A stretch of 64,000 nucleotides of DNA, taken from positions 92,498-156,497 of the forward strand of contig CBDBNN010000002.1 in the NCBI GenBank assembly GCA_965207895.1, read 5' to 3'. Source of the DNA: Dehalococcoidia bacterium (lineage in GTDB: Bacteria; Chloroflexota; Dehalococcoidia; UBA6926). Of this stretch, positions 9,771 through 63,134 are shown piece by piece. Numbering within the stretch: the stretch's first letter is position 1; every line of letters starts with the position of its first letter. Made by a program: the position numbers and the translations under genes. The notes under the pieces are model-generated. The model worked only from the letters and a program-made list of their open reading frames with translations, had not been told where the DNA came from and made no database searches.

Positions 9771-10514
9771 CTACGAGTCAAATCCCAGCCCCATTTCTTT
9801 CATGCTGACTACACGAGTTCGCTCGTTGTGGGCCACAACGATGTGGTCGAGCACCTTGATGTCCAGGGCGTTGCCCGCCTCGATGAGTTGGCGCGTGGTG
9901 CGTTCGTCATCCGGACTTGGGGTGGGGTCTCCTGAGGGATGGTTATGAACGATGATGATGCCGGGCTGGTTTCGCCGCACGGCTTCCCGAAACACTTCCG
10001 CGGTCCTCACGTGAGACGAGTTGACGGTTCCGCGATACAGGCTCTCTACATGGACAACGTGGTTCTTCGTGTCCAGCACGAGAACGCGCAACTCTTCATG
10101 ATCAAGGAAGACCATGTCCGAGCCGACCACGTTATAGACATCCTCCGGCCCAGAGATCACCGGGCGCTGCTCCGGCGACTCAACCTGGAGCCGTCTTCCG
10201 AGTTCCAGGGCAGCCTTAATCTGAGCGGTCTTGGCGACTGCCATACCGGGCTGACGAGCAAGCTCATCAAATGTCGCCTGATGGAGTCCCTTGAGTCCTC
10301 CAAACTCGCGCAGGAGTCGCGTTGACATGGTGACGACGCTCTCATTGCGCCTGCCAACACGGAGGAGGATTGCAAGAAGCTCGGAATTGCTCAGAGCCTG
10401 CGCGCCCCGGTCTCTCAGACGCTCACGCGGCCTTTCATCCTGCGGCACGTCTCGTATGAGAAAACTCGCGGAGTATTCAGAATGCCTCGCGTATTTCTGC
10501 TCGTCCCCAACCAT
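9771..10514 (-). CDS. radC: RadC-family JAB domain protein (UPF0758)
   Basis: ERPRERL, HhH region, HNHPSGDPTPSPDD, VLDHIVV. Confidence 0.93.
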   Translation of the reverse strand: MVGDEQKYARHSEYSASFLIRDVPQDERPRERLRDRGAQALSNSELLAILLRVGRRNESVVTMSTRLLREFGGLKGLHQATFDELARQPGMAVAKTAQIKAALELGRRLQVESPEQRPVISGPEDVYNVVGSDMVFLDHEELRVLVLDTKNHVVHVESLYRGTVNSSHVRTAEVFREAVRRNQPGIIIVHNHPSGDPTPSPDDERTTRQLIEAGNALDIKVLDHIVVAHNERTRVVSMKEMGLGFDS

Positions 10515-10562
10515 GATCCGACCCCCGACACGCCGGTCTCGACCGGCCAAAAGACAAGAAAC

Positions 10563-10591
10563 CGGCGGCCTGTCGTCGTAACAGGCCGCCG
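10563..10591 (-). terminator. Hairpin terminator after rplL
   Basis: CGGCGGCCTGT-N7-ACAGGCCGCCG; on the minus strand it is followed by TTTCTTGTCTTTT. Confidence 0.7.
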
Positions 10592-10646
10592 TATCTGTTC
10601 GACTGCGATTTTGTCCCGGTCCCGTGATCCGGGCTCAGGCGATACT

Positions 10647-11042
10647 CTAGGTGATGTCGACGGCTGCGCCGACGCCCTCAAGCTTGGTCCTGATGGTGTC
10701 GGACTCGTCTTTCGCGACGTTCTCCTTGATGGCCGCAGGAGCGGACTCCACCAGTTCCTTCGCTTCCTTCAGGCCAAGGCCGGGCACCAACTCACGCACC
10801 GCCTTAATGACCTCAATCTTGTTGGGGCCGATGTCTTGAAGAGTCACGGTGAACTCGAACTTCTCTTCCTCGGCGGGGGCCGCTGCGGCATCCCCACCAC
10901 CGCCCGCCGCCGGAGCAGCCGCAACGGCGACAGGCGCGGCGGCTGTCACACCGAGCCGCTCCTCAAGCTCCTTGACCAGGTCGGCAAGATCAAGGACGGA
11001 CATGCCCTCGATTGCCGCAACAATCTCATCCTTTGTCGCCAT
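10647..11042 (-). CDS. rplL: 50S ribosomal protein L7/L12
   Basis: [19 protein letters not shown]...[23 protein letters not shown]; start corrected to ATG 11042. Confidence 0.97.
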
Positions 11043-11046
11043 CGTG

Positions 11047-11577
11047 TTAGCTCCTCTCCTCCAGCTGTCTGCGTCTTTGATCCAGGACATTCACAATACT
11101 GCTCACATGAGTATGCAATACACTGACCAGCCGTTGGCTTACTCCGTTCATCGCGCCCATCACCTGCGCCAGCAGCACTTCTCGTGACGGGAGCGTCGCC
11201 AGACGTTCCAACTGCGGCGGGGCAATGACCCGATTCTCCAGCACTGCGTTCGTGATCCGCAACTGCATCCTATTCGTTCGGACGTACGTCGAGAGAGCCT
11301 GGATGACTGGAATCGGATCCTCTCGGGTGACAATCAAGCCGACGGAGCCATCCAGCAGGCTGCCGATTTCGTCCCGTTGCCCCAACGACTCAGCCGCTCT
11401 CAGGGCGAGCCGATTCTTGACGATGCGATAGCGCGTGTCATTGATCCGCAAGGCGCCGCGCAGCCCTTCCATCTCTTGCACAGAGAGCCCGGAGTGGCCC
11501 GCGCCAATGATTAGAGACGCTCCATCAAGGAACTCCGTGAGTTCCTGCACCTGTTCAATCTTCTTTGCTGATGGCAT
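11047..11577 (-). CDS. rplJ: 50S ribosomal protein L10
   Basis: [10 protein letters not shown]...IVKNRLA...[13 protein letters not shown]; position between rplA and rplL. Confidence 0.95.
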
Positions 11578-11601
11578 GGCGTCGTCTCTCGATTACATCA
11601 G

Positions 11602-12318
11602 TTAGTCAACAGGTTGGAGGGCGCTTGCCGCAATAGGATCGATGCGGACGCCGGGTCCCATGGAGCTGGAAACGCTGACACTGCGGATAAATTGCCCGCG
11701 CACCACCTCTGGGCGGGCCTGCGTAATCGCGCTCACCAGGGCGGCCATGTTCCCCATCAGGTTTTCCGGTTCAAAGCTCGCCTTTCCGATTGGACTGTGG
11801 ATGATGCCGGTCCGGTCAAGGCGAAACTCAACGCGTCCCTTGCGGGCCTCTTCAATGGCGCGCGGCAGATCCTGCGGCTGCACCACAGTGTTTCCTCGCG
11901 GGCTCGGCATGAGTCCCCGGCGTCCAAGAACACGCCCTAGCCGACCAATACGACCCATGATGTCCGGCGTTGCCAGCGCGACGTCAAAGTCCGTCCAGCC
12001 GCCCTCGATGCGTTCGATGAGGTCGTCGGAGCCCACAAAATCGGCGCCGGCTTCGGTGGCCAGCCGCTCACCCTCTCCTTGCGCGAACACGAGGACACGG
12101 ACTGCCTTGCCGAGTCCATGCGGGAGCAGAGCGACACCGCGCACCTGTTGGTCCGCCTGCCGGGGATCAACGTTGAGGCGTATATGCAGCTCAACGGTCT
12201 CATCGAATTTCGCGGTGGCGGAATCCTTGACAAGACCTATCGCGGCATCCGGCTCGTAGAACGTCAGATGCTCAATCGGGTCAGCGGCCTGATCGTATCG
12301 CTTGCTGTGCTTTGGCAT
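11602..12318 (-). CDS. rplA: 50S ribosomal protein L1
   Basis: AKFDETVELHIRL, QQVRG..LLPHGLGK, GRVLGRRGLMP, SMGPG. Confidence 0.97.
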   Translation of the reverse strand: MPKHSKRYDQAADPIEHLTFYEPDAAIGLVKDSATAKFDETVELHIRLNVDPRQADQQVRGVALLPHGLGKAVRVLVFAQGEGERLATEAGADFVGSDDLIERIEGGWTDFDVALATPDIMGRIGRLGRVLGRRGLMPSPRGNTVVQPQDLPRAIEEARKGRVEFRLDRTGIIHSPIGKASFEPENLMGNMAALVSAITQARPEVVRGQFIRSVSVSSSMGPGVRIDPIAASALQPVD

Positions 12319-12336
12319 TTGCTGATTATCCGTGGC

Positions 12337-12762
12337 TTAGTCGCTAATGTCGATGCCCATGCTGCGGGCTGAGCCCATCACCATCTGCATCGCTGCTTCA
12401 ACATTGTCTGTATTGAGATCCTCCAACTTCAGTTGGGCAATCTCTCGCACCTGGTCCCGCGTGACCGTCGCGACACGCTCAGTCCGTACGTCTGAACTGC
12501 CCTTTTCGATACCGGCGGCCTTGCGCAGGAGATCGGATGCAGGCGGCGTCTTCGTGACAAAGGTGAATGATCGATCCTCGTAGATTGTGATGTCAACAGG
12601 GATGATATTCCCGGTCTGGTCCGCCGTCCGCGCGTTGTACTCCTTGACGAATCCCATGATGTTCACGCCATGGGGGCCAAGGGCCGTGCCGACGGGTGGC
12701 GCGGGCGTCGCCTTGCCTGCCTGAATTTGCAGGCGCACTACCGACCGTACTTTTCGTGCCAT
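12337..12762 (-). CDS. rplK: 50S ribosomal protein L11
   Basis: [34 protein letters not shown]. Confidence 0.98.
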
Positions 12763-27312: not shown

Positions 27313-27795
27313 TCAGCCGGGCAGAACGCCCCTTCTTTCCTTAGGCTCATGGCAATACCACACCCGGCCCGCAATGGCAGAGCGCTCGACAGGGCCAAAT
27401 GCGCGGCTGTCCCTGCTGTCACCGCGATTGTCGCCGAGTAGGAAGAACTGTTCCTCGCCCATCGCCCATTCGTGGCCATCTCCGGGATTCGGCCTCGACG
27501 GCGCGCGTGAGACATACGCCTCCGAGAGCGGCTCGCCGTTCACATAGATAGCTCCATCTACCATTGCGACGCGTTCATTCGGCAGACCGCAAACCCGCTT
27601 CATGGATACCCCTCCGGATTCGGGCTCCCTGAAAGCCACGACATCACCCCTTCGCGGTGTTCCACCGGGGAAACGCCGCGATACAAGGACCATGTCGTCC
27701 TCCAGTAAGTATGGTTCCATGCTGTGGCCGGCCACGCGGAACCGGAGAGAGCTAAACAGGTCCAGCAGGCGGGAGGGATGCAGCCACCAGGGCAT
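27313..27795 (-). CDS. sodX: S26-family peptidase; NiSOD maturation protease (SodX/SppX-like)
   Basis: GHSMEP (Ser), SMKRV (Lys), LLGDNRGDSRDSRAFGPV; divergent from sodN. Confidence 0.8.
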   Translation of the reverse strand: MPWWLHPSRLLDLFSSLRFRVAGHSMEPYLLEDDMVLVSRRFPGGTPRRGDVVAFREPESGGVSMKRVCGLPNERVAMVDGAIYVNGEPLSEAYVSRAPSRPNPGDGHEWAMGEEQFFLLGDNRGDSRDSRAFGPVERSAIAGRVWYCHEPKERRGVLPG

Positions 27796-27914
27796 CAGAG
27801 GTCCCTTACTATGCCTGCGGCATTCCTTGCCCTATGAGTGGGGGCTACCGTACAATCTTTCACGTTTGAATCCGCTTGAGCCAACTTGAAAATTGGGGAC
27901 GATAGGAGGAAGAA

Positions 27915-28409
27915 ATGTCCGCACTTAGTATAGCCCTGCGAGCTGTCGAAAAGCTCTCTCCCGCCCGCACTGCCAACGCGCACTGTGATATTCCGTGTGG
28001 TATCTATGATCCGCACGCAGCCCAGATCGCGGCGCACACGGTTGTGCGGATGGTGAATTTGATTGAGGACCTGGGCGAGGTCTCAGACGCCGAGTCGCGC
28101 AACAAGCTCATACGCTACATCGCCGTCAAGGAAGAGCATGCTGAGCTTGCCAAGAAAGAGCTGCGCATCCTGTGGGGCGACTATTTCCGCCCCGAGCACC
28201 TGGAGCAGCACCCGAATCTGCACAACCTGTTCTTCACCGCGATGAAGCAGGGTTCCGCCGCGCGGCAGAGCGTCAGTATGGACAACGCTCAAGCGCTTGT
28301 GTCGACGGTGCAGGAGATCGCCGAGATTTTCTGGGCGACCAAGGGCGCGGAGACATCCCGACAGCCGTCTCGTCAGACGTCCGGCGGGGAGATCGTGTAT
28401 CCGGCGTAG
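27915..28409 (+). CDS. sodN: Nickel superoxide dismutase precursor
   Basis: 22-aa leader followed by the Ni-hook HCDIPCGIYDP; KEEHAE...ILWGDYF. Confidence 0.96.
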   Translation: MSALSIALRAVEKLSPARTANAHCDIPCGIYDPHAAQIAAHTVVRMVNLIEDLGEVSDAESRNKLIRYIAVKEEHAELAKKELRILWGDYFRPEHLEQHPNLHNLFFTAMKQGSAARQSVSMDNAQALVSTVQEIAEIFWATKGAETSRQPSRQTSGGEIVYPA

Positions 28410-29817: not shown

Positions 29818-30840
29818 ATGATCGTCGTAATGCGAACTGACGCAACACAAGAAAACGTGGACGGCGTTGTCGAAAAGATCCAGGAACTTGGCTATCGGGC
29901 GGACGTGGAGCCCGGCGAGTTCACCAGTGTTGTTGCCGTCATCGGTGACACGACAGCAGGTGGCGACGACGTCCTGAGAATCCTGCCGGGTGTGGATCAC
30001 GTGGTCCGCATCATGAAGCCGTACAAGCATGTGAGCCGCGATTTTCGAAAGAGGGATACCGTTATCGATTTGCCAAATGGCGTGAAAATCGGCCCGAACG
30101 CGCCGGTGGCCATGATGGTAGGGCCGTGCGCAGTGGAGTCCGAGGAGCAGGTACGGCAGGTTGCCGAGATGGATCAGAAACTCGGCTTCAGCATTCTTCG
30201 CGGCGGCGCTTTCAAGCCACGCACCTCGCCGTACACATTCCAGGGGCTGGGCCTTGAGGGGCTGCGCATCCTGAGAAGCGTCGCCGATGAGTACGGTCTG
30301 ATGGTCATCACCGAAGTGATGTCCGAGATGGACGTGGAAATGTGCGAGGAGTACTCGGACATCCTCCAGATTGGCGCTCGCACCATGCACGCGTTCCGGC
30401 TGCTGAAGACCGTCGGACAAACGCGCAAGCCTGTATTGCTGAAGCGCGGATTCCACGCCACGATCCGCGAGTGGCTCCTGAGCGCTGAGTACATCATCAG
30501 CGAGGGCAATTGGAACGTCATCATGTGTGAGCGCGGCATCCGCAGCTTTGACGATGAGTTCTCACGGAACGTCCTTGACCTGACTGCCGTGCAAATCCTT
30601 AAGAGGGAGAGCCACCTGCCAGTTGTTGTTGATCCCAGCCACGGCACGGGTGAACGTGACTTGGTAATGCCGATGGCAAAGGCTGCCATCGCAGCAGGGG
30701 CGGACGGGCTTATCATCGAAGCACACCCGGACCCCACGACGGCGCTTTCTGACGGAGCACAGTCGCTGCCAGTGGATTGGCTGCCGGAATTGCAGAAACA
30801 GGTCAACGATATTGCCAAGGCAATCGGACGGGAGGTCTAG
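29818..30840 (+). CDS. aroF: DAHP synthase, class I-beta with N-terminal ferredoxin-like regulatory domain
   Basis: GPCAVES, RGGAFKPRTSPYTFQG, QIGARTM, PVLLKRG, CERGIRSF, DPSHGTG, EAHPDP..ALSDG. Confidence 0.95.
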   Translation: MIVVMRTDATQENVDGVVEKIQELGYRADVEPGEFTSVVAVIGDTTAGGDDVLRILPGVDHVVRIMKPYKHVSRDFRKRDTVIDLPNGVKIGPNAPVAMMVGPCAVESEEQVRQVAEMDQKLGFSILRGGAFKPRTSPYTFQGLGLEGLRILRSVADEYGLMVITEVMSEMDVEMCEEYSDILQIGARTMHAFRLLKTVGQTRKPVLLKRGFHATIREWLLSAEYIISEGNWNVIMCERGIRSFDDEFSRNVLDLTAVQILKRESHLPVVVDPSHGTGERDLVMPMAKAAIAAGADGLIIEAHPDPTTALSDGAQSLPVDWLPELQKQVNDIAKAIGREV

Positions 30841-30933
30841 GGCCACGGAGTCTCAGCATTCTTCCCTGCGCCTGCAATGACACGGCACAGGACATGACGC
30901 GAGAAGGCAGTGGTCAGTAGAATGCGTAGCAAC

Positions 30934-31020
30934 GGCAGGATGGCGGAGTGGACAAACGCACCAGGCTGTAAACTTGGCGCCCTAAGGGCTACGGGGGTTC
31001 GAATCCCTCTCCTGCCACCA
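30934..31020 (+). tRNA. tRNA-Tyr(GTA)
   Basis: GGCAGGATGGCGGAGTGGACAAACGCACCAGGCTGTAAACTTGGCGCCCTAAGGGCTACGGGGGTTCGAATCCCTCTCCTGCCACCA; long variable arm, encoded CCA. Confidence 0.95.
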
Positions 31021-31055
31021 CTCCGCCTTTACCTCAGAACGCCCGCGAGGCGCGT

Positions 31056-33098
31056 GTGATGTTGTTTGAACTTTCAAACGACCTGCTGACGCGGCAACCC
31101 ACGTCTGTTGTGGGAGTCGTATTCGTACATGACACGGCCGCGCCTTCCCCTGAGAACGTCGGCGCACTCCAACGCGCCCTACACGAAGCAGCACAGGCTG
31201 TGCCGTGGAAGCTTGGCGGAACCGGGCTGCACGGCCATCAGGCAATTGCCCGGTGGGAGCAGGCTTTCGAGGCGGAGGGCATCAACCCCCGGACTCATAT
31301 GCCGTCGGTCGCGGCCCTCGCCCAGCGATGCTTGCGCGGCGACTATGTTCGCTCAATCAACCCCGCAGCTGACATTGCCAACCTCATCTCCATGAGACAC
31401 CTCGTGCCGGTCGGCGCGCATGACGTAGATCGACTACCCGGAGACATCACCGTGCGGCTGAGCCGCGAGGGAGACACGTTCACCGGTCACCCCGGTGATG
31501 AAACGGAAAAACTGCCGACCGGTGAGCCGGTGTATGCGACAGGCAGCGATATTCGAACCCGTCGCTGGGTCTGGCGGCAGGCCGAAACGGCTATGACAAC
31601 ACCGGAGAGCCGGACAATCGTCTTTCCTGTGGACGGGTTCACGGACGCGACTGCTGAGCGCGTAGAGGCGGCGACGCAGGAATTGGCACTTTTGGCCAAA
31701 GCGGTGCTTGGCGGAGATGTTTGCTACGGCTATGTGAGCGCCGACAAGCCTTCACTTTCTGAGGATGATGTCTCGCTGACCCAAGTGGATGACAGCGAGG
31801 CAGCCACTGCCCCGCTGTTGTCTCTCGACACAACTGACGAGAGGGCTGGAACCTACCCGTCCCCACCGGACGATGAGGCGCTCGCCAAATGGTCGTTGTC
31901 AGACCTGCTCCGTCGGGGGATTTTGGACGGCGTGATCGTCGAGGAGGAGCTGCAAGAGGCGCTGGACTCCGGGCGGCGACTAACCATCTACGAGGGGTTT
32001 GATCCGACAAGCACAAGTCTCCATATCGGCCACTATCTTTCCTTGAGGGTCTTGCGATGGTTCCAGTTGAACGGGCATCGCGTCATCATGTTGTTCGGCG
32101 ACTTCACCGCTCGTATCGGTGATCCAACAGGCCAGTCAGCGGAACGCCAACAGCTCACACAAGATGAGGTGCTCGCCAACGCCCAGGAGTGGCGGGCACA
32201 GGTTTCGCGCGTGCTTGATCTGGGTGGAGACAATCCCGTCGAAATCAAATGGAATGGCGAGTGGCTGGATAGCCTCACGCTTCGGGACATGATTGAGATT
32301 GCCGCGAACGTGACGGTGCAGCAGCTTATTGAACGGGACATGTTCCAGGAACGCCTCTCGCAGCAAAGGCCCCTCCATTTACATGAGACGCTCTATCCGC
32401 TGCTGCAGGGCTATGACTCTGTGGCGATGAGCGTGGACGCGGAGCTTGGCGGCCGTGACCAGATGTTCAATATGATGGTCGGGCGAGACCTTGTGCGGAA
32501 TTACAACGGCAAGACGAAGCACGTGCTGATGACGCCGCTCATCCCGGGCCTGGATGGGCGCAAGATGAGCAAGTCATATGGGAACACCGTCGATCTCACT
32601 GAGAATCCCGTCGATATGTTCTTCAAACTGACGCAAGTGAGTGATGAGCTGTTGCCAATGTTCATGAGCGTTCTCACGGACACGCCGGACGAGGAAATCG
32701 ACGAAGTTCGGCACCGCCTGTCCTCTGAGTCCAACCTGCAGGATGCTCGTGAGCGATTCGCGTGGGCGGTGACAGAGCGCCTGCACGGCGCCGATGAGGC
32801 GCAACGGGCTCAGGCAGAGTTCACACGTGTGGTCGATGAAGGAAGCATGCGGCAGGACGTGGAGGAGGTTTTCCTGAAGCCTGCGACAGAGCCCCTGACG
32901 ATTCTTGACGTTGCGGTGGCAACGGGCCTGACGACGAGCCGCGGCGACGCGCGCCGCCTGATCCAGCAGGGCGGTCTTGAGATCAACGACCATCGCCATA
33001 CTGAGCCCACGCTGCAGCTCTCGCCGGAAGACGTGGAGGGAGCAATCATCAAGATGGGCAAACGCGGATTCGTGCGGATGAAGGTGAAACGCGCATGA
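31056..33098 (+). CDS. tyrS: Tyrosine--tRNA ligase with an N-terminal B3/4 (PheT-like editing) domain
   Basis: C-terminal part: YEGFDPTSTSLHIGH, YPLLQGYDS, ELGGRDQMFN, KMSKS, S4 domain SRGDARRLIQQGG. N-terminal ~230 aa: PSVAAL..R...INPAADIANLISMRHLVPVGAHDVD and RRWVWRQAE..T, typical of B3/4 proteins. Confidence 0.92.
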   Translation: MMLFELSNDLLTRQPTSVVGVVFVHDTAAPSPENVGALQRALHEAAQAVPWKLGGTGLHGHQAIARWEQAFEAEGINPRTHMPSVAALAQRCLRGDYVRSINPAADIANLISMRHLVPVGAHDVDRLPGDITVRLSREGDTFTGHPGDETEKLPTGEPVYATGSDIRTRRWVWRQAETAMTTPESRTIVFPVDGFTDATAERVEAATQELALLAKAVLGGDVCYGYVSADKPSLSEDDVSLTQVDDSEAATAPLLSLDTTDERAGTYPSPPDDEALAKWSLSDLLRRGILDGVIVEEELQEALDSGRRLTIYEGFDPTSTSLHIGHYLSLRVLRWFQLNGHRVIMLFGDFTARIGDPTGQSAERQQLTQDEVLANAQEWRAQVSRVLDLGGDNPVEIKWNGEWLDSLTLRDMIEIAANVTVQQLIERDMFQERLSQQRPLHLHETLYPLLQGYDSVAMSVDAELGGRDQMFNMMVGRDLVRNYNGKTKHVLMTPLIPGLDGRKMSKSYGNTVDLTENPVDMFFKLTQVSDELLPMFMSVLTDTPDEEIDEVRHRLSSESNLQDARERFAWAVTERLHGADEAQRAQAEFTRVVDEGSMRQDVEEVFLKPATEPLTILDVAVATGLTTSRGDARRLIQQGGLEINDHRHTEPTLQLSPEDVEGAIIKMGKRGFVRMKVKRA

Positions 33099-33976
33099 GC
33101 TTCGATAGACCCACCGTCGGATTCCTCCAACCGGAGGCCACCTTCACCCATCTGGCGGCCATCGCCCACTTTGGCCGGGATGCCACCTTTGAACCAATGG
33201 AGTCGGAGGCAATCTGCCAGGCCGTTCAGCGGGGTGAGATTGAATACGGCGTTCTGCCCATTGAGAACCTCCTTGAAGGAACCGTGGGAGCGACCCTGGA
33301 CTTCGTGACGGCGACAGAGGGCATCAATGTGGTAGCCGAAGTCTTCTTGCCCATTCACCACCACCTGTTAACCAAGACATCGCTGGAACAGGTGACGCGC
33401 ATCTACTCGCATCCGCAGGCGCTGAGCCAATGCCGGCGGAGCATCCGGCGCCTATCTGAAGAATTGGGTCGGGAAATTGAGGTTATCGACGAATCGAGCA
33501 CAGCGCGTGGAGCAGAGATAGCCGCGGCATCCGAAGACCCCGGGGCTGCCGCATTGGCCACAGCTGTTGCAGCAATGTACTACAGGCTGAAGGTTGTGCG
33601 GGAAAACATGGAGGATGGGGCGGAGAATTCGACCCGCTTCTGGGTGCTGAGCAAAGACTTTTCCCCCGAGGCGACGGGCGGAGACAAGACGACGATCCTG
33701 TTTGACCTCGAGAATCAGCCCGGCGCGTTGGTCAAGGTTCTCAATCTATTCTCATCGCGGGGGCTGAACGCAACGATGTTGCAGTCCCGGCCATCCCGAC
33801 TTGATCCAGGAGAGGGCCTGTGGGAATACACGTTCATCGTGGAGTATTTGGGGCATATACGTGACGCGGGGCTGGCAGAGGCTTACGCTGAAGTTGAGGC
33901 CGGGCTGGGAACACTCTGTAAGCGAATCCGTTTGTTGGGTTCATATCCGCGGAGTTCTATGGTTGAGAACGACTAA
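33095..33976 (+). CDS. pheA: Prephenate dehydratase (PDT + ACT, no chorismate mutase domain)
   Basis: GVLPIENLLEGTV, YSHPQALSQC, NSTRF, PGALVKVL, LQSRPS, LGSYP; 4-nt overlap with tyrS. Confidence 0.92.
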   Translation: MSFDRPTVGFLQPEATFTHLAAIAHFGRDATFEPMESEAICQAVQRGEIEYGVLPIENLLEGTVGATLDFVTATEGINVVAEVFLPIHHHLLTKTSLEQVTRIYSHPQALSQCRRSIRRLSEELGREIEVIDESSTARGAEIAAASEDPGAAALATAVAAMYYRLKVVRENMEDGAENSTRFWVLSKDFSPEATGGDKTTILFDLENQPGALVKVLNLFSSRGLNATMLQSRPSRLDPGEGLWEYTFIVEYLGHIRDAGLAEAYAEVEAGLGTLCKRIRLLGSYPRSSMVEND

Positions 33977-34033
33977 ACACGTACAATTGAATTGGCCGGT
34001 TCACGGTCGTTGAATAATGCGCGGGGGAGAATT

Positions 34034-35497
34034 GTGACATCATCAGTCGGCAAGGCTGTCCATGCCGGAAAGGTCCTGGAAGTCGAGGTGCCGCCTCGGT
34101 CCCTTGATCTTTTGGCTCCGTTCGTCAACAAGCAGCGTCGATCTGCGATTGCGGAGGCGGCGCAGACGGTTGGCCACGCCCTTCAGGGCCGCACCGTCAT
34201 CAACATAAACTCCACGGCCAGGGGCGGCGGCGTGGCAGAGCTCGTGCAGGGGCTATGCGGTTACGCGAAGGGCGCAGGCGTCGATTCGCGATGGCTTGTC
34301 ATTGAGGGCGACAGTGAGTTCTTCCGCATAACCAAGCGCATCCACAACAACCTGCACGGAGAGGCGGGCGACGGAGGCCCGCTTGGCGAGGCAGAGCGCG
34401 CGCACTATGAGCGAGTGCTGGCTGAGAACGCAGACGCCATCACCACGCAGGTGCGGACCGGAGACATCGTCATCCTGCATGATCCCCAGACTGCAGGCTT
34501 GGCCGAGACAATACTTCAAGCAGGCGCGCGTGTCATCTGGCGGTCTCACATCGGTCATGAAGAGCATGATGCGCTTGTGACCGGGGCGTGGGAGTTTCTC
34601 CGTCCGTACGTGCAGCAAGCGGACTTGTGCATTTTCAGCTTGCCTGAATACGCGCCGGCATGGCTTGATCCGGCTGCTATCCGCATCATCAATCCATCCA
34701 TCGATCCGGCGAGTTCAAAGAATACGGACATCAGCGCTACAGCAGCAGACATTCTTGTGAGTGTCGGCCTCCTCGACGGCCCACCTCCCTCCACACCACC
34801 TCAGTTCTTGCGAGACAACGGCACATTCGGGACAATTGCCCGTCGTATCGAGGCCGTGACAGAGGGCACCCTGCCCCGCCCCGAGGATCCGGTCGTTGCC
34901 CAGATTGCTCGCTGGGACAAGCTCAAGGACATGGCAGGCGTGATGCGCTCGTTCGCGCAGATGGCGGACGCGCCGCCCAACGCCCACCTCTGGCTCGTTG
35001 GACCGGCGGTGAGTGGTGTCGCGGACGATCCGGAGGCGCAGCGCGTGTTCGAGGACTGCTCTGCTGAGTGGCGGGCGCTGCCGGACGATATTCGGCGGCG
35101 AATTCACCTTGTGAACGTGCCGATGGATGACCGCGAGGAAAATGCTGCCGTCATCAACGCCATTCAGAGCCACGCCGCGATAATCGTTCAAAAAAGTCTT
35201 GCAGAGGGCTTTGGCTTAACGGTCACAGAGGCGATGTGGAAGGGAAAGGCCGTCGTCGCGAGCGCTGTTGGCGGTATCCGCCAACAGATCATCGACGGCC
35301 AGTCGGGCATCCTCCTGCCCAACCCCTCGGATGAAGTCGCATGCGCCCAAGCGATAAGGAACCTTCTGGCCGATTCTGCATGGGCGGCCGAATTGGGCGC
35401 TGCGGCTAGAGAACGGACCCGGGATCTATTCCTGCCGGACCGGCACCTACTCCAATACGCCGAACTCATACTCGACACGATGCCGGAGGCGGCGTAA
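34034..35497 (+). CDS. GT4 glycosyltransferase, TreT-like trehalose synthase
   Basis: NSTARGGGVAE, FFRITKRIHNNLHG, HDPQ, IWRSHI, ARWDKLKD, QKSLAEGFGLTVTEAMWK. Confidence 0.85.
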   Translation: MTSSVGKAVHAGKVLEVEVPPRSLDLLAPFVNKQRRSAIAEAAQTVGHALQGRTVININSTARGGGVAELVQGLCGYAKGAGVDSRWLVIEGDSEFFRITKRIHNNLHGEAGDGGPLGEAERAHYERVLAENADAITTQVRTGDIVILHDPQTAGLAETILQAGARVIWRSHIGHEEHDALVTGAWEFLRPYVQQADLCIFSLPEYAPAWLDPAAIRIINPSIDPASSKNTDISATAADILVSVGLLDGPPPSTPPQFLRDNGTFGTIARRIEAVTEGTLPRPEDPVVAQIARWDKLKDMAGVMRSFAQMADAPPNAHLWLVGPAVSGVADDPEAQRVFEDCSAEWRALPDDIRRRIHLVNVPMDDREENAAVINAIQSHAAIIVQKSLAEGFGLTVTEAMWKGKAVVASAVGGIRQQIIDGQSGILLPNPSDEVACAQAIRNLLADSAWAAELGAAARERTRDLFLPDRHLLQYAELILDTMPEAA

Positions 35498-58350: not shown

Positions 58351-58492
58351 GGCCTGAATGTGACGTTTTTGAAGCGCATTCCAACCTGAATGTAGCAATG
58401 TTGTAGTCGGATGCGCATACGCGTCAGGGCGACTGTAGTTGTGGGTTCGGCAGCGGCCGGGCCTGAGGCAACAGACGCAGGAGGCGCTCGTC

Positions 58493-60304
58493 ATGCGTAC
58501 ACAAGACAGCAGGCTCACCACAAAGCCCGGGGGCACAACTCCCGGTGGATTCTTCGGGGGAGTTGGATGGACAACAGCCCTGGCACTCATCGCCATCGTC
58601 GCCATGATTGCGATGGCGGCCGGCTGTGCAGCCTCGGAAGAAGACTACGACCGCAGCTATCGATCCACACCCGCAATGGCGGAACCCACCGCCACGGCTG
58701 TCACCATCACCGCATCTTCTCCAACCACAGCCCCACGGTATGAAGAGGCGATGGATGATAGCGCTGCGGGCTCGTCGTACTCATCGAGTCGATCGCGGCG
58801 GGCTACGCCGGTTCCGGCACGACCAACTCCATCCTATGAGAGAACAACGATCGTTCCCGGCGGCCCAATAACATTCGATGACTACGTGCAGTCGGGATGG
58901 GTCTGGGCAGACCAGGACAACATGTCCACGTTCAGCCTGGACACGGACCGCACGTCGTTCGCGCTCGCACTGAACTGGGCGCAGTCGGGGTACGAGATCG
59001 ACCCGGATTCCGTGCGCGCGGAGGAGTGGATCAACGCGTTCAATTATGATTATCCGCAGCCGTCTCACGACGACTCCTTCGGCATCACAACAGACGTGTT
59101 CGAACATCCGCTGGACAGCGCGTTCCAGATGGTGCGTCTTGGATTCCAGGCACCCCGGGTTGAGGACAACATTCCGGTCAACGTGACGCTCGTGCTGGAT
59201 GCGTCCGGCTCCATGGCAGACGGAAATCGTGTTGAAATCGCCCGAGAGGCAGCAGAGGCGATTCGCAACAGCCTGGGCAGCAGGGACCGCATGGCCGTCG
59301 TCCATTTCTCATCGGATGTCATCGACAACCTGACTGTCGAGCACTCGAATCCGGATGACCGTGACGTGCGTCGCTCCATCGACCGACTGACGCCGAGTGC
59401 CAGCACGAACGTGCAGGCCGGGCTGAACGAGGGCGTATGGCTTGCAGACCGGGCTCGGCGCGACAGGCCGAACGCATACAACTACATCATCCTGATGTCG
59501 GACGGCGTGGCCAACGTAGATGCGACAGACCCGTTCGCCATCCTTGAGAGCACCTATGACCGGAACGCCCTAAATCCGCTCCGGCTGATCACCATAGGCG
59601 TGGGCATCAGCAACTACAACGACGTGCTCCTTGAGCAGCTGGCACAGCATGGCAACGGATGGTATCGCTACCTGAACGACACCGAGCACGCACGGCAGAC
59701 CTTCGAGCGCGACAACTGGCTGGCCATCTCGAAGCCCTTCGCCGATCAGACGCGGGCACAGGTGAGGTGGAACCCGGACGTTGTGGACTCGTGGCGCATG
59801 GTCGGCTACGAGAACCGTGTCACCTCCGATGCGTCGTTCACCGAGAACCGCAAGGAATTCGCGGAGATCCCGGCCGGCACGGCGACAACAGTGTTCTTCG
59901 AGGTGCGGCTAAGGGATGAGATGCGCTCCCGGCTGAACAGCGTGGCTGACCTCGGCACCGTGGATCTGCGCTGGGTTGATCCTGTCACGGGCCAGTCCCT
60001 TCAGCAGTCTGAATGGATGGACGTGCGGCTGGACCGGCGACTTGGCAGAGGCGACGACGCATACGTGGAGTTCGGCGCGATTGTGGCGCTGTCCGCAGAT
60101 CGCTATGCCAGCCTACCCAACACGGACTCGTATGGAGCGGAAATCGTGCAGCATGAGTTGGCTGTGCTGTCGGATCGACTCGAGTCCCTTGACGGAGAGC
60201 TTGGACGGCTGGAATCCTTCAAGGATTTCCGTTATGTGCTGGGCCACATGATGCACGACCTGCCTCAAGCCCCGGCAAGGCCGTCATCCGGGTACAGCAA
60301 CTAG
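58493..60304 (+). CDS. YfbK-like vWA-domain lipoprotein
   Basis: SD GGAGG before ATG 58493, hydrophobic signal ending AMAAGC (lipobox), FSLDTDRTS, VRAEEWINAF, MIDAS DASGS/STN/SDG, GYENR. Confidence 0.85.
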   Translation: MRTQDSRLTTKPGGTTPGGFFGGVGWTTALALIAIVAMIAMAAGCAASEEDYDRSYRSTPAMAEPTATAVTITASSPTTAPRYEEAMDDSAAGSSYSSSRSRRATPVPARPTPSYERTTIVPGGPITFDDYVQSGWVWADQDNMSTFSLDTDRTSFALALNWAQSGYEIDPDSVRAEEWINAFNYDYPQPSHDDSFGITTDVFEHPLDSAFQMVRLGFQAPRVEDNIPVNVTLVLDASGSMADGNRVEIAREAAEAIRNSLGSRDRMAVVHFSSDVIDNLTVEHSNPDDRDVRRSIDRLTPSASTNVQAGLNEGVWLADRARRDRPNAYNYIILMSDGVANVDATDPFAILESTYDRNALNPLRLITIGVGISNYNDVLLEQLAQHGNGWYRYLNDTEHARQTFERDNWLAISKPFADQTRAQVRWNPDVVDSWRMVGYENRVTSDASFTENRKEFAEIPAGTATTVFFEVRLRDEMRSRLNSVADLGTVDLRWVDPVTGQSLQQSEWMDVRLDRRLGRGDDAYVEFGAIVALSADRYASLPNTDSYGAEIVQHELAVLSDRLESLDGELGRLESFKDFRYVLGHMMHDLPQAPARPSSGYSN

Positions 60305-60339
60305 TTAGCTATTCACCCCACACCACGGGGGAGGGAGAG

Positions 60340-60370
60340 GCCCGCCCTGCCGTACGGCAGGGCGGGTTTT
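60340..60370 (+). terminator. Terminator after vWA gene 1
   Basis: GCCCGCCCTGCCG-TA-CGGCAGGGCGGGT followed by TTTT. Confidence 0.8.
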
Positions 60371-60584
60371 CTTGACCTCACGCTCAACGTGGCTACCTGA
60401 AGGCGACAGTTCTCCGCGTTTCGGAATCGACTGCTCAATTGAGGTTTTAGATTCTCTTGCCCTCAGGCTCAACGTGATTGCCCAAAGTCGATGGTCTTTT
60501 GGAAGCGAAGGGAACGATTTGGGTCATTGAGCGCGTAGTATCTGACGGACTGGAGAATCGGGCAGAGGCCCAAGGGAACAGCCC

Positions 60585-61112
60585 ATGCAGGACAACCAAG
60601 CGGTGGAGAGATGCCAGGGCGGCGATCGGGACGCCTTTCGCCACCTTGTAGATCGCTATCACGGCGTACTTTTCGGCACAGCCATCCTGATGACGGGCAA
60701 TCGCGCCGTCGCCGAAGAAGCTGTGCAGGAGGCATTTCTCTCTGCGTGGAAAGGCATCCGTAAATTCAGAATTGGCCGCCCGTTCAAGCCGTGGGTGACG
60801 CGAATCCTCGTCAATGAGGTATTGAGCGGCAAGAGACGGCGGTCGATACGGACAGATCCGATACCGGAGCCTGATGAAACTGGCGCGCCGTCCGCTTCAC
60901 ACAATCCTGACGCACTTGCGGATCGGGTTGCCGTCAGGGATGCGATTGCCGAGTTGGATTCAGATCATCAGCAGGTGATTGTTCTGCGCTACTTCACGGA
61001 CCTGACCGTGCCGGAGATCGCCAACTCAATAGGAATACCGGAGGGAACGGTCAAATCGCGGCTCAGTCGGGCCATTGCCCGCCTGAGAGAACACCTGGAC
61101 GAGGCCGGGTGA
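60585..61112 (+). CDS. ECF RNA polymerase sigma factor
   Basis: AFRHLVDRYH, AEEAVQEAFL, FKPWVTRI, region 4 EIANSIGIPEGTVKSRLSRA. Confidence 0.93.
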   Translation: MQDNQAVERCQGGDRDAFRHLVDRYHGVLFGTAILMTGNRAVAEEAVQEAFLSAWKGIRKFRIGRPFKPWVTRILVNEVLSGKRRRSIRTDPIPEPDETGAPSASHNPDALADRVAVRDAIAELDSDHQQVIVLRYFTDLTVPEIANSIGIPEGTVKSRLSRAIARLREHLDEAG

Positions 61113-61121
61113 GGGAGGCCC

Positions 61122-63134
61122 ATGATGGATAGAAGGGATCTATCCGACGAGAACATCGAGGACATCCTGCGTGAGCATTTGCAGGCAGAGCTTGAATCAA
61201 TGCCGCCCGCGGCAAACCCGTGGGAGTGGATTCAGAGTCGGCTGCCACGGCAGCGAAGCAGATTCCTCGGATTCCTTGACCTGTCCGTCGGCTCCGCGCT
61301 CCGCCCGGCGCTGGCCGCGACTGCTCTCCTTGCGCTTGTGATCGGGGTGACTACGTGGCAGGTGTCGGGTTTTAGGGAAACTACTCTCTTGGTGACACCG
61401 CAGGACTTATCGTCAGATGGTCAAACCCGATTTGAGTCGCTAGAGTCGGCTGATTTTGAGTCCGTCCCCCTGATGGACTCCGACAGGGCGTTCCCAACGG
61501 CCTTGGCAATCGTGACCTCAGCAGCAACTACCACTCCTCAATCATTGTCAAACATGCCTCAACCAACGCCGCAGCCATGGGCAACACCGGCTCCTCAAGC
61601 AACAGGCTGGCCCGGGTCACAGAGCAGAGCGCTTCCGACTGCCACGCCTCGACCGGCTACACTGCCCAGCCACAGTGGTTCGACAGACACACCCCCAGAC
61701 GCACGCTTCCGGGATCTTGTGCAGTCCGGCTGGGTCTACGCGCATGAGGATAACCTTTCCACGTTCAGCCTGGATACAGACCGTACCTCATTCTCACTTG
61801 CGCTGAACTGGGCACAGAACGGGTACAAGATTGAGCCAAACTCGGTGCGCGCAGAAGAATGGATCAACGCGTTCAACTACGAGTATCCGCAGCCCGCGCA
61901 TGACGACACGTTTGGAATTACAACGGACGTTTTTGCGCATCCACTGTACAGCGATTTCCACATGGTACGGTTGGGCTTCCAGGCGCCCTATGTCATGGAT
62001 GAGAAGCCGCTCAATGTCACCCTGGTTCTTGACGCATCCGGCTCCATGGCCGACGGCAATCGCGTGGACATTGCACGGGCGGCGGCAGAAGCCATCAGGG
62101 AGAGCCTGAGCAGGGATGACCGCATCGCAGTGGTGCACTTCACGGATAACGTGATATCCGACTACACCGTTCGCCACTCGCGAGCCGATGCCAGAGATGT
62201 CAGAGAGTCCATAAGAAAGCTGGCTCCGCACAGCAGCACCAATGTACAAGCGGGGCTCAATGAAGGAGTGCGTCTTGCGGATCGGGCCCGGCGTCAAAGG
62301 CCGGATGCGCACAACTACATCATCCTGATGTCAGACGGTGTCGCCAACGTGGATGCGACTGACCCCTTCGCAATCCTCGAAAGTGCCTACGATCGCGATG
62401 AGGGTAACCCGCTCAGGCTCATCACCATCGGCGTGGGAATCAGCAACTACAATGATGTACTCCTCGAGCAGTTGGCCCAGTACGGCAACGGCTGGTATCG
62501 GTACCTGAACGACGTTGACCATGCGCGTGCGACGTTTGATCGCGACAACTGGCTGGCCATTTCTACGCCGTTCGCCGACCAGACACGTGCGCAGGTGGAG
62601 TGGAACTCAGATGTGGTCGAATCATGGCGCATGATCGGGTACGAGAACCGACTCACCTCTGACCAATCGTTCACGGAGAATCGAAAGGAATTTGCAGAGA
62701 TACCGTCCGGCGCGGCAACAACCGTCTTCTTTGAAGTTCGACTAACGGGCGGGACGCTATCACGTCGTTTTGAGTCAGCCAACTTGGGCACTGTCGCGTT
62801 GCGCTGGGTCGATCCTGGCAGTGGCATTTCGAATCGACAGGCGACGGAACTGAATTCACGACTGGATCATACACTGGGCCGCAGTGGTGACGCCCTGCTG
62901 GAGTTTGGAGCAGTCGTCGCGCTCGCGGCAGATAGGTACGCAAGCCTGCCATACACCGATGACCTTGACGGCACAGCAGCGCGCGGCGAACTTGAATCCC
63001 TGCAGTCACGAACGGAAAGGCTCGCCTCACGATTGGGCAATCTCAATGCATACCATGACTTTTTGCTTGTGCTAGATCGGATGCTAGATGCGATGCCACA
63101 AACATCGGAAAGGTCATCGGGCTACAGCAATTAG
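61122..63134 (+). CDS. Putative anti-sigma factor fused to a YfbK-like vWA domain
   Basis: Short cytoplasmic N-terminus (..PWEWIQSRL), one TM (ALAATALLALVIGVTTW), P/T-rich linker, then a vWA module collinear with 58493..60304; 9 nt after the ECF stop. Confidence 0.82.
   Translation: MMDRRDLSDENIEDILREHLQAELESMPPAANPWEWIQSRLPRQRSRFLGFLDLSVGSALRPALAATALLALVIGVTTWQVSGFRETTLLVTPQDLSSDGQTRFESLESADFESVPLMDSDRAFPTALAIVTSAATTTPQSLSNMPQPTPQPWATPAPQATGWPGSQSRALPTATPRPATLPSHSGSTDTPPDARFRDLVQSGWVYAHEDNLSTFSLDTDRTSFSLALNWAQNGYKIEPNSVRAEEWINAFNYEYPQPAHDDTFGITTDVFAHPLYSDFHMVRLGFQAPYVMDEKPLNVTLVLDASGSMADGNRVDIARAAAEAIRESLSRDDRIAVVHFTDNVISDYTVRHSRADARDVRESIRKLAPHSSTNVQAGLNEGVRLADRARRQRPDAHNYIILMSDGVANVDATDPFAILESAYDRDEGNPLRLITIGVGISNYNDVLLEQLAQYGNGWYRYLNDVDHARATFDRDNWLAISTPFADQTRAQVEWNSDVVESWRMIGYENRLTSDQSFTENRKEFAEIPSGAATTVFFEVRLTGGTLSRRFESANLGTVALRWVDPGSGISNRQATELNSRLDHTLGRSGDALLEFGAVVALAADRYASLPYTDDLDGTAARGELESLQSRTERLASRLGNLNAYHDFLLVLDRMLDAMPQTSERSSGYSN

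Follow-up and report, generated by a model that had tools for sequence, protein, structure and literature searches.

A tyrosyl-tRNA synthetase of Dehalococcoidia joined to an N-terminal CtdA-like B3/B4 domain, a candidate editing module for tRNA-Tyr

Tyrosyl-tRNA synthetase (TyrRS) is the textbook case of an aminoacyl-tRNA synthetase (aaRS) that reaches its accuracy without an editing domain. The domain-superfamily table of AARS Online, in the part of it available to us, does not list TyrRS with any editing domain (PMC11580382). Among the described proofreading systems, the B3/B4 domain of the phenylalanyl-tRNA synthetase beta subunit (PheRS-beta, PheT) is the precedent for post-transfer editing in cis, acting on Tyr or m-Tyr attached to tRNA-Phe, and CtdA is a free-standing deacylase of canavanyl-tRNA-Arg. 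Residues Y104, N105, E118 and E191 are essential in CtdA (bioRxiv 10.1101/2024.11.30.626143), and its specificity residues are G116, C166 and Q173 (PMC12449066). A second clade, named CtdA-2 and called uncharacterised by Maldonado et al. (2025), occurs in Chloroflexi, Bacillota and archaea; it is ~20% identical to the first group (CtdA-1), keeps N105 and G116 and lacks C166 (PMC12449066). Here we describe a gene of a Dehalococcoidia bacterium in which a CtdA-like domain and a complete TyrRS form a single polypeptide. The gene is located at positions 31056 to 33098 of a 64-kb stretch of contig CBDBNN010000002.1, hereafter the window. Related loci and their predicted proteins are cited by our own L and P labels.

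A preliminary description of this DNA, made from its letters alone, had proposed one 680-amino-acid (aa) open reading frame (ORF) containing a B3/4 domain, an acidic linker and a complete TyrRS with HIGH, KMSKS and S4 elements. All of these parts are present, as follows, with residue numbers counted from GTG 31056:

31056..33098, plus strand: B3/4-TyrRS fusion ORF, single and intact, 680 aa from GTG 31056
31056..31760, plus strand: CtdA-like B3/B4-fold N-terminal domain, aa 1-235 (Pfam, AlphaFold2, Foldseek and PDB sequence matches)
31761..31910, plus strand: acidic linker, ~aa 236-285, ~50 aa (low predicted local distance difference test score, pLDDT; composition)
31911..32840, plus strand: TyrRS class Ic catalytic domain, ~aa 286-595 (Pfam, TIGR00234, PDB alignment)
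32022-32033, plus strand: HIGH motif, aa 323-326
32562-32576, plus strand: KMSKS motif, aa 503-507
32883..33095, plus strand: S4-like C-terminal tRNA-binding domain of bacterial TyrRS, aa 610-680 (Pfam, 1h3e alignment)

Pfam searches for B3_4, tRNA-synt_1b and S4 found every one of these domains, and the N-terminal region does match B3/4: B3_4 (PF03483) covers aa 67-206 (E 1.9e-21, 76.9 bits, above the gathering threshold of 29.3 bits), tRNA-synt_1b covers aa 306-591 (E 3.4e-66), and SYY_C-terminal/S4 covers aa 610-672 (SYY_C-terminal 30.1 bits). The acidic character of the linker region is reflected in 14 Asp and Glu residues against 5 Lys and Arg residues within the 62 residues of aa 229-290. 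The ORF opens with GTG-ATG, and the likely start is ATG 31059, giving a 679-aa protein, because a GAGG sequence lies 8 nt 5' of this ATG and the database entries for the protein are also 679 aa long.

The fusion is genuine and of old origin. A chimeric contig could produce such an ORF, as could a mistake in assembly or sequencing that merged two adjacent genes, and one relative, at L087 2185-4227, does have distinct gene calls for B3_4 (P0121) and TyrRS (P0048). This locus is the sole case found of a relative carrying two separate genes, and it proved to be a fused gene with two frameshifts on a contig of 6x coverage, to which the window protein aligns in frames 1, 3 and 1. Four sequencing runs of one sample yielded Logan contigs that span positions 30800-33300 and match the window exactly, with 0 substitutions and 0 indels. 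The objections that the preliminary description had foreseen, namely split relatives and a stop or frameshift visible in reads of the window, are thus both answered by these contigs and by the frameshifted state of L087. The B3_4 plus TyrRS architecture was present in 97 of the 120 best database matches, at identities from 90% down to 39%, and more than 100 independent fused homologues were collected in all, from ENA, NCBI, JGI and Logan assemblies. Several of these homologues lie on contigs of 1.1-2.5 Mb, and the names given are those of Dehalococcoidia or Chloroflexota metagenome-assembled genomes (MAGs). The probability that the fusion is an artefact is considered negligible. Public annotation of the fused proteins reads merely "tyrosine--tRNA ligase".

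Comparisons of sequence and of predicted structure place the N-terminal domain nearer to the free-standing CtdA-type deacylases than to PheRS-beta. In a sequence search of the PDB the closest solved relatives were the CtdA structures 9f7e (E 9e-13) and 9mkl (E 3e-12), with PheRS-beta chains far weaker (E 3e-4 or worse). An AlphaFold2 model of the domain, made with an alignment of 49 sequences, has a pLDDT of 94.8, and Foldseek returned the same two CtdA structures as its top matches; for 9f7e the match has E 7e-17, a template-modelling (TM) score of 0.80 relative to the query (TMq) and 0.87 relative to the target (TMt), and a root-mean-square deviation of 2.7 A over 231 columns. The TMt value applies to the whole of the CtdA protein, and the modelled domain includes the long helical insert specific to the CtdA-type B3/B4 fold, whereas PheRS-beta has PheRS-type indels instead. 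Against PheRS-beta, Foldseek gave TMq ~0.52 and E ~1e-8, which reflects a homologous fold, but the window domain lacks the PheRS-beta context and the pheT profile scored only 21-23 bits on the fusion protein, far under its cut-off of 402 bits. An exhaustive HMMER search with the domain found 1978 representative clusters (50% identity) at E < 1e-3. Of the best 150 of these relatives, 97 stand alone as proteins of 200-260 aa, and 13 exceed 500 aa in length; 12 of these 13 are, or on a scan of only some of them appear to be, TyrRS fusions. The nearest free-standing relatives are 235-240 aa in length and 37-45% identical to the window domain, are labelled Chloroflexia, Bacillota or Firmicutes, and have the same pocket. 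The domain probably belongs to the CtdA-2 clade, an assignment made by description: the taxonomic range matches, identity to CtdA-1 is ~20%, the equivalents of N105 and G116 are kept and that of C166 is absent (PMC12449066). The CtdA-2 paper mentions no fusions, whereas the window domain is part of a TyrRS polypeptide.

The residues of the putative active site fall into four segments of the domain:

31371..31382, plus strand: D106-I-A-N109 motif; N109 is equivalent to the catalytic Asn (CtdA N105, E. coli PheT N254), with A108 in place of CtdA Y104
31407..31424, plus strand: P118-V-G120-A-H122-D123 pocket motif; G120 corresponds to CtdA G116, with H122 in place of CtdA E118
31557..31580, plus strand: T168-R-R-W-V-W-R-Q175 (CRRWNWRQ in CtdA); T168 in place of C166, Q175 corresponding to CtdA Q173
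31623..31637, plus strand: F190-P-V-D193-G; D193 corresponds to CtdA E191 at the pocket bottom

Identity to CtdA is only ~22%, and the two proteins have in common the catalytic Asn, the Gly of the PVGG motif, the equivalent of E157 and the RRWxWRQ motif. When the comparison is restricted to the CtdA residues with experimental support (Y104, N105, E118, E191, G116, C166 and Q173), the window domain keeps three, as N109, G120 and Q175, and replaces Y104, E118, C166 and E191 with Ala108, His122, Thr168 and Asp193. In addition, V189 and P191 stand where CtdA has W187 and I189. With respect to CtdA-1, three bulky residues of the pocket wall have given way to smaller ones (Ala for Y104, Tyr for W158, Val or Phe for W187), and one of the two acidic residues at the pocket bottom is replaced by His. 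From these substitutions the pocket is predicted to be wider and less anionic than that of CtdA-1, and it could hydrogen-bond a phenolic OH.

Conservation was counted in 107 TyrRS-fused sequences and in 150 free-standing relatives. The catalytic Asn is present in 106 of the former and 142 of the latter. Near-invariant positions in the fused set are N109, E157, R169, W171, R174 and D193 (106 sequences each), G120 (all 107) and W173 (105). Position 122 is His in 93 fused sequences and Asp in 13, position 168 is Thr in 93 and Cys in 14, and position 108 is Ala, Ser or Gly. The residues at positions 122, 168, 175 and 191 form an HTQP signature that was found in 71 fused and 88 free-standing proteins. 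Judged by this pattern the domain is conserved like an enzyme and not like a relic, and it would not be a decaying appendage, because the HTQP pocket is common to fused and free-standing proteins.

The preliminary description had anticipated a paradox should the domain retain a PheT-like specificity for Tyr. Such a specificity does not follow from homology: the positions of PheRS specificity residues H265 and G318 are occupied by Gly120 and Gln175 in the window domain, as in CtdA, and a PheT-like pocket was ruled out at these two positions. PheRS N254 is kept (N109), and R244 aligns with R99 in the window, where the family consensus is Pro. A related proposal is that the domain performs an ancestral, PheRS-like hydrolysis of Tyr- or m-Tyr-tRNA-Phe in trans, and that its fusion to TyrRS serves co-expression or the sensing of Tyr. 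An ancestral B3/B4-like hydrolase of Tyr- or m-Tyr-tRNA has been proposed by Maldonado et al. (PMC12449066), and the window motif PVGAHD is more like the PMHAFD of E. coli PheT than the PVGGEN of CtdA-1. The Gly and Gln residues just mentioned are CtdA-like, however, and a hydrolase of Tyr-tRNA, once attached to TyrRS, would put Tyr-tRNA-Tyr at risk. With the further evidence on this proposal given below, it is regarded as quite improbable.

Domains of this family are also found with other synthetases, and the comparison bears directly on function. Protein P0171 (L085 1259-4633; 1124 aa) consists of two tandem B3_4 domains followed by a complete arginyl-tRNA synthetase (ArgRS) and was found on five contigs. 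Its pockets are CtdA-1-like, with Tyr108, GGE(N/D), Trp160 and Glu at position 122, making it a candidate cis-editing ArgRS directed against canavanine-like analogues. Protein P0238 (L094 4001-6149) joins B3_4 to the anticodon-binding oligonucleotide-binding (OB) fold of lysyl-tRNA synthetase (LysRS) in 390 aa, with Glu at positions 122, 175 and 193 of its pocket. The next ORF, which overlaps it by 11 nt, encodes a 328-aa LysRS catalytic part (lysS model positions 133-456), and the two probably represent a single B3_4-LysRS gene that a frameshift has divided. Fusions to ArgRS and LysRS look rare, with one cluster each among the best 150 relatives. They belong to the same domain family as the window protein, but their pockets are of the acidic, CtdA-1-like type: Glu122 corresponds to CtdA E118, the binder of the cationic canavanine, where TyrRS-fused domains have His or Asp, and the TyrRS-fused domains have residues smaller than CtdA Y104 and W187. 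By alignment, then, the type of pocket tracks the synthetase partner, and no other observation argues more strongly that the fused domain acts on the tRNA of its partner and on analogues of its partner's amino acid. A canavanine- or Arg-like substrate for the window domain was judged unlikely, given the replacement of E118 and Y104 and the retention of the acidic type by the ArgRS- and LysRS-fused relatives. The arrangement of an editing module N-terminal to the catalytic core and connected to it by a linker is found in the B3_4-ArgRS and -LysRS fusions and likewise in threonyl-tRNA synthetase (ThrRS), whose N2 editing domain has a different fold.

A further relative, P0204 (L084 359-1420), is a complete 353-aa gene in which a B3_4 domain of the HTQP type is joined to a TyrRS-type S4-like C-terminal domain alone. 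It looks like a free-standing deacylase equipped with a tRNA-Tyr-type binding module, and its architecture points to tRNA-Tyr as the target. The union of the domain with a tRNA-Tyr-type binding domain also speaks against the PheRS-like hydrolysis of tRNA-Phe esters considered above.

The same comparisons bear on the possibility that the domain is a non-catalytic appendage, either a module binding the acceptor end or the amino acid that aids capture of tRNA-Tyr, or one that regulates TyrRS or the aromatic operon. Domains appended to aaRS are often tRNA-binding or regulatory modules. Other relatives of the N-terminal domain are fused to tRNA_bind and GNAT domains, and Y104 and E118, both essential in CtdA, have given way to other residues. 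On the other hand, the catalytic Asn and the entire pocket wall are under conservation just as strict as that seen in the free-standing proteins, and the substituted residues are conserved too (His in 93 of 107; Ala, Ser or Gly at position 108) and co-vary with the partner synthetase, a pattern that indicates changed specificity and not decay. A non-catalytic role is therefore held to be unlikely.

The synthetase half of the protein has the appearance of an ordinary bacterial TyrRS. The TIGR00234 tyrS equivalog model from NCBIfam matches with 335 bits (cut-off 113.8 bits) over model positions 8-405 of 406, and the best solved relative is the Thermus thermophilus enzyme (1h3e, E 6e-78), with the C-terminal domain included in the alignment. 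Residues Y312, D356, Y447, Q451, D454 and Q469, which were located by aligning the protein with solved TyrRS structures, do not vary among 62 fused sequences; their roles in binding Tyr and ATP are presumably those of the Geobacillus stearothermophilus enzyme. As judged from these residues the active site is canonical, and because it is so, nothing suggests a relaxed specificity, including a relaxed discrimination against Phe. The fused TyrRS is probably the housekeeping enzyme. In a profile scan of genome contigs, in which the matches listed are mostly unrelated TyrRS, at least two fused loci (L005, L006) were found and no genome appeared twice among those matches. In the separate database search, among the matches listed, all at 53% identity or more, no unfused TyrRS gene lies on a contig equal in length to one of the twelve 1.1-2.5 Mb contigs that carry fused genes, an indirect sign that the fused gene may be the only tyrS.

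Taken together, the residue patterns and the structural model make it probable, though well short of certain, that the N-terminal domain is a TyrRS-tethered post-transfer deacylase that acts on tRNA-Tyr bearing a non-cognate amino acid similar to Tyr; hydrolytic activity, action in cis on tRNA-Tyr and the identity of the substrate are each inferred. In the mechanism envisaged, a canonical bacterial TyrRS would have gained, by way of a flexible acidic linker of ~50 aa, an N-terminal module of the CtdA/B3-B4 fold that looks catalytically competent. The synthetase would bind and then charge tRNA-Tyr, and where the esterified residue is Tyr-like but non-cognate, the 3' end would reach the tethered domain. 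There the region of Asn109 and Gly120 would position the ester for hydrolysis, and a deep pocket lined by His122, Asp123, Asp193, Tyr160, Trp171 and Trp173 would select the side chain. Candidate substrates are D-Tyr, L-3,4-dihydroxyphenylalanine (L-DOPA) and other ring-modified tyrosines; the preliminary description had suggested that a cis-editing TyrRS could remove Phe, m-Tyr or DOPA, which are likewise no more than candidates.

Several considerations weigh against this proposal. TyrRS discriminates against Phe very well, so that no clear need for editing presents itself. L-Tyr itself might equally well occupy the His/Asp pocket, and this would lead to a futile cycle unless the product were protected. 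The placement of the domain relative to the synthetase is not confidently predicted (full-length AlphaFold2 predicted TM score 0.67, pLDDT 62-66 over aa 250-270). Some Dehalococcoidia TyrRS genes with the same tRNA-Tyr synteny (L004, L007) do not have the domain, so that it is dispensable in some lineages. Finally, the CtdA-2 clade to which the domain probably belongs is itself described as uncharacterised (PMC12449066).

A more specific alternative is that the domain is a D-Tyr-tRNA-Tyr deacylase, a chiral proofreader that takes on the role of D-aminoacyl-tRNA deacylase (DTD; background on D-Tyr and DTD in PMC6765224) but is attached to the synthetase responsible for the error. The fusion partner is TyrRS far more often than any other synthetase, as seen in 12 of the 13 relatives longer than 500 aa among the best 150 (some of them scanned), and the Tyr side chain would sit well in a His/Asp pocket that suits a phenolic OH. 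TyrRS is notorious for accepting D-Tyr, and DTD has D-Tyr-tRNA-Tyr as its classic substrate. Against this, we know of no B3/B4-fold enzyme that discriminates chirality, and free-standing homologues of the domain occur in Bacillota and archaea, groups that generally have DTD. No dtd gene was found among the ORFs scanned in the window. A dedicated D-Tyr deacylase is accordingly rated as credible but rather unlikely.

Returning to the deacylase of Tyr-like esters in general, the parts of such a system are known, as the cis-editing B3/B4 fold of PheRS and as free-standing CtdA; TyrRS as the partner, the altered pocket and the modular recruitment of the domain by several synthetases were not previously known. 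No description of a B3/4-TyrRS fusion was found in a full-text literature search or in the CtdA papers, an absence that is not proof of novelty. The broadest form of the proposal is that this would be the first natural editing TyrRS, with a widespread Chloroflexota lineage proofreading tRNA-Tyr by a CtdA-2-type deacylase in cis, and with the module a portable cassette of TyrRS, ArgRS and LysRS, recruited independently and re-tuned in its pocket; this is put forward tentatively, at slightly below an even chance. If it is true, a function, the clearing of Tyr-like or D-Tyr aminoacyl-tRNA, could be assigned to the large uncharacterised CtdA-2 family. The fusion serves as a "Rosetta stone" for the free-standing members of that family, which number ~2000 representative clusters when grouped at 50% identity. 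The presence on TyrRS of a conserved deacylase domain would imply either an unrecognised fidelity problem of tRNA-Tyr, involving D-Tyr, oxidised or halogenated Tyr or other analogues, or a new use of the fold. The pocket residues that track TyrRS, ArgRS and LysRS amount to a directly testable specificity code, and a TyrRS of this kind could be of use in engineering orthogonal TyrRS/tRNA pairs with built-in proofreading.

The history of the fusion was examined in rough neighbour-joining trees of both halves. Most fused N-terminal domains form one clade beside the free-standing HTQP proteins. Thirteen fusions with a different pocket, DCQN (Asp122, Cys168, Gln175, Asn191; including P0097 and P0080, at L003 and L005), are separate and basal in both the N-domain and the TyrRS trees. 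Two groups of unfused Dehalococcoidia TyrRS nest within the fused clade in the TyrRS tree. This topology points to an old fusion and later losses of the domain, with repeated fusions a possible alternative to a single old one. One DCQN-type member occurs in a MAG labelled Blastocatellia (Acidobacteriota), suggesting mis-binning or horizontal transfer. Two genes 3' of the DCQN-type fused tyrS of L003, at 10447-12519, is a gene for a 690-aa protein combining alanine dehydrogenase/PNT with a YbaK-type tRNA_edit domain.

The fused tyrS is flanked by a tRNA gene and by genes of aromatic amino acid synthesis:

29818..30840, plus strand: DAHP (3-deoxy-D-arabino-heptulosonate 7-phosphate) synthase with N-terminal ferredoxin-like regulatory domain (Pfam), the 5' neighbour, also in L001
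30894..30923, plus strand: sigma-70-like promoter match (consensus scan, 9/12), just 5' of tRNA-Tyr
30934..31020, plus strand: tRNA-Tyr (GTA) gene, 87 nt (ARAGORN; Rfam tRNA 57.9 bits)
33095..33976, plus strand: prephenate dehydratase with ACT domain (Pfam), the 3' neighbour, also in L001 and L087

The tRNA-Tyr gene is of the bacterial type, with a long variable arm, G1-C72 and an encoded CCA, and ends 36 nt before the fusion ORF. The adjacency of tRNA-Tyr and tyrS is found in the fused loci L001, L003, L005 and L087 and also in the unfused Dehalococcoidia loci L004 and L007, in which the gap between the tRNA and the TyrRS core is only ~100 nt. Because it extends to these unfused loci, the synteny is independent of the fusion, and synthetase and cognate tRNA are a conserved pair. 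No terminator-like site was found between tRNA-Tyr and the fusion ORF, and there are weak indications that the two are co-transcribed. An upstream regulatory RNA such as a T-box was considered and dismissed, since Rfam at gathering threshold matched the tRNA-Tyr gene only. At L087, where the TyrRS part is 87% identical to that of the window, a gene for an SNF2 helicase and not one for DAHP synthase lies 5' of tRNA-Tyr.

The ATG of the prephenate dehydratase gene overlaps the tyrS stop codon (ATGA), by which tyrS would be translationally coupled to the Phe branch. The position of the fusion gene between DAHP synthase and prephenate dehydratase is a further point in favour of the PheRS-like hydrolysis in trans discussed above. 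This frame of neighbours is kept at 55% identity (L001) but is lost at ~42% (L002, L003), where the fusion is retained, a loss that counts against that reading. Directly 3' of the aromatic cluster, at 33992-35497, is a gene for a TreT-type trehalose synthase (GT4), a neighbour absent from L001.

Among the free-standing HTQP homologues (L088-L093), a HAD-family hydrolase gene lies directly 3' in two unrelated contexts, and aldehyde:ferredoxin oxidoreductase is encoded near both of these. Genes for M20 peptidases are found repeatedly, in the vicinity of L092, of L088 and of the fused L002. As a guide to function, this context of HAD hydrolase, aldehyde:ferredoxin oxidoreductase and M20 peptidase points to no substrate.

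Elsewhere the window has the usual content of a core chromosome, encoding AspRS (aspartyl-tRNA synthetase), RpoD, EF-Tu, NusG, L1, a Clp ATPase, S1, ilv/leu products and FtsH. A nickel superoxide dismutase gene and a gene resembling an S26 signal peptidase form a divergent pair of the sodN/sodX type at 27313-28409. The region 58439-63134 encodes two vWF_A/VWA/YfbK_C paralogues, 621 and 670 aa long, with a gene for an extracytoplasmic function (ECF)-type sigma factor (60585-61112) between them.

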